Part shown: one piece after another, positions 12,729-15,645 of the stretch | Position numbering within the stretch: the first letter of the stretch is position 1 | How the letters are laid out: each line of letters begins with the position of its first letter | Source of the DNA: Nonlabens sp. | GTDB taxonomy: Bacteria > Bacteroidota > Bacteroidia > Flavobacteriales > Flavobacteriaceae | Assembly (NCBI RefSeq): GCF_039770275.1 | Contig: NZ_JBDMYO010000012.1 | DNA length: 64,000 nt | Direction: 5' to 3' (one strand) | The notes under the pieces: generated by a model | The model's database searches: none | What the model was told of the DNA's origin: nothing | What the model saw: only the letters and a program-made list of their open reading frames with translations | Program-made: the position numbers and the translations under genes

Positions 12729-15191
<2,463 letters not shown>

Positions 15192-15202
<11 letters not shown>

Positions 15203-15428
15203 TTGCTTCATCTCTATCAAAATCAAACTTACCTACATATTTACCATGCTCTTCAGCAAAATTGAGAAGCTTATCTACAGAGGATTCGTATTTTTTAGGC
15301 TTCCTAACATTGTTTTCTAGAAACTCTCTAATTACTTCGTTAAGAGACTTCCCTTGCTTTTTAGCATATTCTTTACTTGCTTCTATGAGCTGATCTGATA
15401 ATCTGATTGTTAAATTTTTTGTTGCCAT
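15192..15428 (-). CDS. Ribbon-helix-helix antitoxin (DUF6364-like)
   Basis: KNLTIRLSDQLIEASKEYAKKQGKSLNEVIREFL RHH pattern; directly upstream of and overlapping the PIN gene. Confidence 0.85.
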
Positions 15429-15439
15429 GATATTATCTT

Positions 15440-15607
15440 TTATCTCGCGTTTGCTTCTTCTCTATTGAACTTTTTTACACCAAAATATCCAGCATTCTCT
15501 TCTGAAAAGGCAGCTATTTTCTCAGAGGTCGTTAAATACTCCTTAGGCTTTCTAACGTTGTTTTCAAGAAACTCTCTAATTACTTCACTTAAGAAGTTCA
15601 ATTTCAC
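15440..15607 (-). pseudogene. N-terminally truncated paralogue of the antitoxin (55-codon ORF from GTG, or a remnant)
   Basis: Translates (M)KLNFLSEVIREFLENNVRKPKEYLTTSEKIAAFSEENAGYFGVKKFNREEANAR*; 29/50 aa identical to the C-terminal 50 aa of the intact antitoxin; not in the ORF track. Confidence 0.75.
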
Positions 15608-15611
15608 AAAT

Positions 15612-15645
15612 CAAATATACAGTTTGCACAGATGCTGTGCAAACT
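15612..15645 (-). promoter_or_regulatory. TA operon promoter with overlapping inverted-repeat operator
   Basis: Minus strand TTTG-N20-TATATTTG (Bacteroidota -33/-7); perfect IR AGTTTGCACAG-atg-CTGTGCAAACT at 15621-15645 covers the -33 box and spacer. Confidence 0.7.

Follow-up and report, generated by a model that had tools for sequence, protein, structure and literature searches.

Operons of the VapBC and FitAB type place the antitoxin gene first with an overlapping toxin start, encode an antitoxin composed of a ribbon-helix-helix (RHH) head and a C-terminal tail together with a PIN-domain toxin, and carry a palindrome in their promoter. We analyzed an operon with the same features in a 64,000-nt stretch (the window) of contig NZ_JBDMYO010000012.1 from a marine Nonlabens sp.; it is located on the minus strand and is composed of a promoter, a 55-codon open reading frame (ORF), an 11-nt spacer, an antitoxin gene, a PIN toxin gene and ligA. 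Judged by its gene content, the locus as a whole is a vapBC-like RHH-PIN type II toxin-antitoxin operon. It differs from VapBC and FitAB in that its antitoxin belongs to an uncharacterised family, DUF6364, of which we found no mention in the literature searched, in that the operon is fused to ligA, and in that the toxin is nearest to PcrIIC1. The subject of this study is the 55-codon ORF (15607-15440, minus strand; GTG at 15607, TAA at 15440), a headless antitoxin copy that we denote psiB. The data indicate that this ORF is probably a fairly recent, decaying relic of an antitoxin gene of another specificity class, class B, left in the 5' leader of the operon.

Stepwise decay of chromosomal toxin-antitoxin loci, in which truncated antitoxin DNA remains and the toxin is lost before the antitoxin, has been described (Belot et al. 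2026, PMC13617665). The Nonlabens locus resembles these eroded loci in being chromosomal, in holding a truncated antitoxin remnant and in the inactivation of toxins in relatives (loci L033/L003 and L016/L017; L numbers denote the related loci). Unlike them, it carries the remnant within a live operon, directly 5' of an intact pair of the other class, and it has been repeatedly refilled rather than lost. Orphan antitoxins form the second group to be compared, and a degraded pair, anti-addiction and cross-talk with active pairs are among the explanations considered for them (Horesh et al. 2020, PMC7192599). The window copy is likewise derived from an antitoxin and has no cognate toxin next to it; however, it is headless, it precedes a homologous intact antitoxin in a tandem that has one promoter, and relatives hold full-length versions of the tandem under purifying selection.

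Alignment of the copy with the intact antitoxin gene is ungapped at a 248-nt register and stays in frame through the stop codon, with 107/168 nt and 29/50 amino acids identical, in agreement with the initial annotation, which had described an in-frame, indel-free paralogue of the last 50 antitoxin residues. A DNA profile of 16 family genes (nhmmer) matched window positions 15595-15441 to gene positions 82-236 (E = 6e-23), the homology comprising codons 27-78 (52 codons) of a DUF6364/RHH antitoxin and beginning at 15595, so that the first four codons of the ORF derive from the former 5' leader. At codons 27-30, K-S-L-N has become N-F-L-S in the copy. As annotated, the copy is headless: residues 1-26, which form the RHH strand and the first helix, are gone, and the helix at residues 29-40 (taken from a low-confidence AlphaFold model) and the tail are retained. 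Also as annotated, it does not carry the embedded toxin ATG (AACGCG vs AATGAA): its 3' end reads AAC GCG AGA TAA, that of the intact gene AAT GAA AGA TAG. The 55-codon ORF had no match to Pfam or NCBIfam up to E = 1 and fails as a member of the DUF6364/RHH family; searches with the 50-55-residue peptide returned only the peptide itself and the short ORF of the L003 type.

The initial annotation had pointed to a 44-nt block encoding EVIREFLENNVRKPK (second RHH helix), in which the copy (15543-15586) is identical to the intact gene (15295-15338) at 41 of 44 positions. This block is real, but the homology of the two copies begins earlier, at codon 27. The same block in the class-B gene of L044, which belongs to another species, matches the copy at 41/44 and the intact window gene at 40/44; because it is equally similar, the identity is not special to the window pair, and local gene conversion was ruled out as its source. 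By this comparison the block represents the terminal part of the head domain, which this clade conserves, and no local recombination scar.

The head of the family is near invariant (MATKNLTIRLSDQLIEASKEYAKKQGKSLNE.IREFL), and the tails sort into distinct classes. The tail of the copy is unlike that of its neighbor, which is of class A, and matches class B; the term 'allele' used in the initial annotation is therefore inappropriate, whereas its suggestion that the diverged tail represents a different specificity is borne out by the cognate PIN toxin that class B has in other genomes. Full-length class-B antitoxins were found in the metagenome contigs L003, L019, L033, L043 and L044, in each case upstream of a PIN toxin of its own and of ligA. 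The order in L044 (hexosaminidase, promoter, leader of ~110 nt, full-length class-B antitoxin, toxin, ligA) provides the best model of the parent. The copy and the L044 antitoxin are identical at 39/48 amino acids and 79% of nucleotides, which is the genome-wide level for the two species (ligA, 84%). Comparison of the window with L044 revealed one gap of ~170 nt, corresponding to the leader and codons 1-26, after which the homology is back in frame at codon 27. This single gap explains the headless state, and given that homology resumes only at codon 27, the GTG 'start' sits in former leader sequence. With full-length class-B genes present in L044, L033 and L043, the copy has the partial homology of a gene remnant.

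A class-B toxin was found neither in the window nor, at 70% identity or above, in any NCBI genome of the protein collection searched. Class-B toxins were seen at the ligA-adjacent chromosomal slot only, never on plasmids or phages; the plasmid search gave one distant DUF6364 match, on an aphid-symbiont plasmid, and the phage search none. The junction of the two copies, i.e. the end of the first, the spacer and the start of the second, is identical at 55 of 70 positions between the window and L033, approximately the genome-wide level. Such a level would fit a single old origin with later replacement of the flanking blocks, or tandems that formed several times from leaders resembling one another.

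The initial annotation had proposed a search for alternative arrangements in related genomes, and tandems, mirror-image copies and a sister species free of the copy were all found. Scans of genome and metagenome collections gave few loci, and most of the locus context came from exact-protein look-ups. Every Nonlabens locus recovered carries a vapBC-like operon directly upstream of ligA. A single antitoxin with its toxin is the arrangement in L005, L006, L020, L022, L024, L025, L028 and L044. In L004/L038, the closest other species (ligA 84-87% identical, antitoxin protein 100% identical, same toxin class), the class-A pair of the window lies behind an unrelated leader of ~165 nt and the copy is missing, showing that the copy is dispensable, as a gene remnant would be. 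Two full-length antitoxins in tandem, followed by one toxin and ligA, were found in Nonlabens sp. YIK11 (L014 4001-4877), in L015 (4001-4895) and in L016-L018. The first antitoxin of YIK11 and L015 has a tail of a class that is paired with a different toxin in other genomes. A mirror arrangement was found in L003, L033, L019 and L043, in which a dead class-A copy (L033 2253-2489; L003 296-532; L019 276-512; L043 ~2036-2269) lies 5' of an intact class-B antitoxin. The head of the dead copy in this lineage is interrupted by two in-frame stops, and the tail ORF is still open; in L019 the short ORF additionally has no start codon.

At the position of the copy, related loci carry leaders of 24 to ~165 nt in which we found no sequence common between species. 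The long leaders of L004 and L044 were considered as fully decayed copies and rejected, since local alignment was no better than with shuffled sequences and the DNA profile was blank. Short repeats resembling small intergenic repeat elements are present in leaders and upstream spacers (L004 3850-4000, L028 2780-2940, L044 2700-2810); one in L004, AGAAACCTCAC.CTTTA...GGGAAAAGGTT.CGGA, occurs twice.

We compared the substitutions of the copy with those of intact class-B genes. It carries 8 lineage-specific amino acid changes, compared with 0 in L044 and 4 in L033, and 6 of the 8 lie within the C-terminal 15 residues. Three residues that do not vary among 18 family members (S28, N30 and E77) are lost, and the changes in the tail include G63F, G65V, A66K, D70N and E77A; this pattern may reflect relaxed constraint. 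Nucleotide substitutions unique to the copy number 22, compared with 4 in L044 and 17 in L033. In simulations of neutral substitution the open frame survived in 78% of cases after 4 substitutions and in 27% after 22; since the frame survives often, it is uninformative on function, and we rejected it as a sign of function. The dead class-A copies of L033 and L043, the only comparable orthologous dead copies, drift at the neutral rate: their divergence is 6.4% for the head, 6.3% for the tail and 6.9% for the intergenic DNA of the two loci. The toxin genes of the same two loci differ by 8.4%, equally across the three codon positions, and that of L033 has a nonsense codon. In the dead copy of L003, the head (296-421) is 48% identical to any intact head and the tail (422-529) is 76% identical to the class-A tail of the window. 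Greater conservation of this tail was rejected as an explanation, since both parts have changed equally, at the neutral rate, since L033 and L043 split; a later recombination event may have overwritten the tail. A separate observation concerns a 48-nt patch of the dead class-A copy (L003 374-421, codons 27-42), in which L003 and L019 show 21 differences (44%) between flanks that differ by ~6.5%; both versions of the patch are far from the family consensus.

Several observations argue against decay. The substitutions unique to the copy are distributed 3/5/14 over codon positions 1/2/3, a pattern that is non-neutral overall (p 0.0035) and the same as in L033, whose class-B gene is intact (3/2/12, Fisher p 0.74), indicating that the copy was under protein-level selection for most of its history. 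Furthermore, strong purifying selection acts on the first antitoxin of YIK11 and L015 (omega 0.03-0.06 between the two, synonymous sites saturated), which has no cognate toxin adjacent to it, so that copies in first position can be functional and maintained. Lastly, there are two lineages in which the head is destroyed and the tail ORF is left open. The third-position bias fits a recent truncation as well as a tail that is still constrained.

Together, the known parent class, the single gap, the recurring tandems, the sister species without the copy and the neutral evolution of analogous copies led us to favor a relic. In the proposed sequence of events, the ancestral locus would have been a tandem in which a class-B antitoxin, without a class-B toxin, preceded a class-A antitoxin/toxin pair. 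A single deletion of ~170 nt would then have taken codons 1-26 of the class-B gene together with its leader and joined the promoter/operator to codon 27. The remnant, lacking an ATG and presumably unable to form an RHH dimer or to bind DNA, would make up the initial ~180 nt of the operon mRNA and would be heading toward the state of decay seen in the copies of the L033/L043 lineage. As for how such a tandem might arise, a recombinant that kept the old antitoxin while gaining a new pair could escape the lingering old toxin.

Among the other readings of the ORF, a functional headless antitoxin is possible but unlikely, and none of our findings calls for one. Translated from GTG 15607 or from a TTG two codons on, the peptide would keep the toxin-binding tail and could neutralise PIN toxins of class B or, to a small degree, the class-A toxin of the operon itself. 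In this role, comparable to orphan immunity or anti-addiction, it would buffer the cell against class-B blocks arriving by recombination from co-occurring Nonlabens. In VapBC and FitAB complexes the C-terminal part of the antitoxin by itself contacts and blocks the PIN toxin, and here the ORF is intact and free of indels through 52 homologous codons, its substitutions are biased to third positions as in a functional orthologue, full-length orphan antitoxins in first position are under purifying selection in another clade, and blocks move between co-occurring species, as judged from a 100-nt run shared by the window and L004 (see below). On the other hand, the peptide would have to start, without an ATG, from a GTG at the predicted transcription start in a U-rich context; it has lost three family-invariant residues, and 6 of its 8 unique changes hit the conserved C-terminal motif; the sister species does without the copy, and neutral evolution is seen in comparable dead copies. 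There would also be only weak selection for standing immunity, because PIN toxins act intracellularly and class-B toxins were seen at the chromosomal slot only. A broader form of this idea appears doubtful to us: first-position antitoxins, whether full-length (YIK11 clade) or headless (window), would be kept as the old antidote when recombination brings in a new block of tail and toxin, and the 55-residue peptide would be an antidote, free of DNA binding, to class-B PIN toxins circulating among co-occurring Nonlabens. If it were true, retaining the old antidote would let cells survive both residual old toxin and its later re-invasion, and the locus would resemble polymorphic toxin/immunity loci that carry orphan immunity genes.

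The copy could also act in cis, as a leader or upstream ORF whose translation or RNA structure tunes antitoxin output relative to toxin and ligA. The promoter and operator lie solely 5' of the copy, with no -7-like box before the intact gene, and the stop codon of the copy is 11 nt from the next ATG; leaders of 24 to ~165 nt are, moreover, tolerated at related loci. Yet no leader sequence is common between species, so no conserved leader function is evident, and a search of Rfam gave no match; we regard such a role as improbable. The initial annotation had further raised the possibility of a silent cassette that changes the tail of the expressed antitoxin by recombination or gene conversion through the 44-nt block. 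Direct repeats with 41/44 identical nucleotides, 248 nt apart, a second conserved block at the 3' end of the copies (29 nt, 83% identical) and the mirror arrangement elsewhere, with a class-A remnant upstream and class B intact, would suit this idea. However, the variable region of the toxin is only 13/70 identical between the classes and the copy holds the tail and no toxin part; therefore, a converted antitoxin with a class-B tail would be mismatched to the class-A toxin that stays in place. Recombination between the direct repeats would remove the sole DNA-binding head, the 44-nt identity is common to genes of other species, and the mirror arrangement has a different, class-B, toxin that must have entered the locus from elsewhere. 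The arrangement is unchanged in assembled contigs from 12 metagenome runs of several studies (seawater, oyster, bioreactor, plankton), with no joint or deletion between the repeats, although this test is weak in that contigs lose rare variants. Altogether, a cassette function is highly improbable, and a decaying class-B relic remains the explanation we prefer.

The classes to which copy and neighbor belong are versions of a variable block formed by the antitoxin tail and toxin residues ~16-85, of which we distinguished at least five unrelated-looking ones. Sliding identity places the limits of the block at about antitoxin nt 120 and about toxin codon 85. Between classes, identity is 35-60% within the block, compared with 80-100% in the head, the toxin C-terminus and ligA, and the block differs wholly even in close pairs such as L014 and L024 (ligA 95-100%). 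L033 and L028 likewise have different blocks, with heads 95-97% and toxin 3' end and ligA 5' end 93-98% identical. The window toxin and that of L044 are identical at 10/15 N-terminal, 13/70 middle and 53/54 C-terminal residues. In the window (14783-15310), as in all related loci, the block lies between the conserved head and the conserved toxin C-terminus/ligA. Distances between tails co-vary with distances between toxin middles (Mantel r 0.73, p 2e-4). Comparison of the window with L004 revealed a run of 100 identical nucleotides (window 15158-15257, antitoxin nt 172-271), covering the end of the antitoxin tail and the start of the toxin, amid sequence of 84-87% identity; both species are present in plankton metagenome run X8, and the run suggests a recent exchange between them. 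From these comparisons we infer that the matched tail and toxin core are exchanged between species as one block by homologous recombination, the head and the toxin C-terminus/ligA serving as anchors.

In layout, the closest parallel is offered by the orphan modules of contact-dependent growth inhibition (CDI) and rearrangement hotspot (Rhs) loci, where a conserved 5' region precedes a variable specificity block that is swapped by recombination. Displaced modules in these loci are 5'-truncated, keep a short conserved stretch, lie downstream, and hold a toxin tip and an immunity gene. The Nonlabens locus also has a conserved 5' region, a block replaced by recombination and an older 5'-truncated piece; unlike in CDI and Rhs loci, the displaced piece lies upstream, adjoins the promoter and contains part of the antidote only, and the toxin acts intracellularly, so that the selective logic differs.

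The predicted promoter/operator of the operon (15612-15645, minus strand) contains a -33-like TTTG (15643-15640) that lies 20 nt 5' of a -7-like box, TATATTTG (15619-15612), and a perfect 11+11-nt palindrome, AGTTTGCACAG-CAT-CTGTGCAAACT, at 15645-15621. The palindrome core, TTGCACA-N5-TGTGCAA, lies 5' of the first antitoxin copy in 15 of the 15 related loci examined, from which we infer that the conserved palindrome is the operator of the operon. The GTG of the copy begins 4 nt past TATATTTG, i.e. at about the expected transcription start, in a U-rich context, as the initial annotation had noted. No -7-like box was found between the headless copy and the intact antitoxin, leaving the promoter/operator 5' of the copy as the sole recognisable one. 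The genus shows two promoter layouts: in the clade of the window (15612-15645) a TAnnTTTG box lies 3' of the palindrome, and compact loci (L014 3960-4000, L020 2960-3000) have 10-13 nt between the end of the palindrome and the ATG, where a -7-like box, if present, would have to overlap the left arm of the palindrome.

Downstream of the copy, the 11-nt spacer (15429-15439, minus strand) separates its stop codon from the ATG of the intact antitoxin (15428-15192, minus strand; 78 residues, RHH head and class-A C-terminal tail), which matches the Pfam models PF19891 DUF6364 (41.4 bits, cut-off 27.3) and RHH_1 (23.1 bits, cut-off 20.5) and for which a low-confidence AlphaFold model gives helices at residues 2-24, 29-40, 50-61 and 72-75. 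The ATG of the class-A PIN-domain toxin (14783-15202, minus strand; 139 residues) is embedded, at 15202, in the last codons of the antitoxin gene; the toxin matches PF01850 (E 2.2e-17, 64.2 bits, cut-off 23.6). With the NCBIfam VapB and VapC models, the window antitoxin and toxin score far under the cut-offs. The nearest solved relative of the toxin by sequence is PcrIIC1 (PDB 8wmm, E 1.6e-7), no classical VapC. On the right-hand side the conserved flank is ligA (14783-12729, minus strand), encoding NAD-dependent DNA ligase, whose start overlaps the toxin stop (TAATG). Toxin stop and ligA start abut or overlap in all Nonlabens loci examined (window 14781-14785, L014 4877/4878, L015 4895/4896, L020 3643/3644, L028 3634). 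On the other side, a beta-hexosaminidase gene diverges from the operon (plus strand, from 15716). The 6 kb of the window around the locus were recovered in two NCBI metagenome-assembled genomes (MAGs) at 99.7-99.9% identity, and proteins 99-100% identical to the intact antitoxin are present in Nonlabens MAGs.

Two cases of natural toxin knock-out were identified, in both of which the antitoxin genes are intact. The class-B toxin of L033 and L003 carries a nonsense codon (L033 ~2829, codon 35), and that of L019 and L043 is intact; the toxin of L016 and L017 has a 1-nt deletion (L016 ~3103) in a sequence otherwise near-identical to the intact L015 and L018. As to the persistence of the locus, ligA may be co-transcribed with the toxin-antitoxin operon, and this could be the reason why the slot is refilled and not deleted.

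Truncated remnants and orphan antitoxins are already known, and in themselves the data point to the 55-codon ORF as an ordinary by-product of toxin-antitoxin turnover, which should not be annotated as a new regulator. The wider value, which is somewhat higher, lies in the exchangeable specificity block and in the maintained two-antitoxin arrangement. Next to ligA, an essential gene, Nonlabens holds a slot that is never emptied and in which matched blocks of antitoxin tail and toxin core appear to be refilled between fixed recombination anchors; the slot sometimes holds a second antitoxin, which one clade keeps under purifying selection. With its five or more classes, reciprocal remnants and polymorphic toxin knock-outs, the locus offers a natural series for how specificity is encoded and exchanged, and one that also bears on whether a resident antitoxin eases the replacement of an addictive module.

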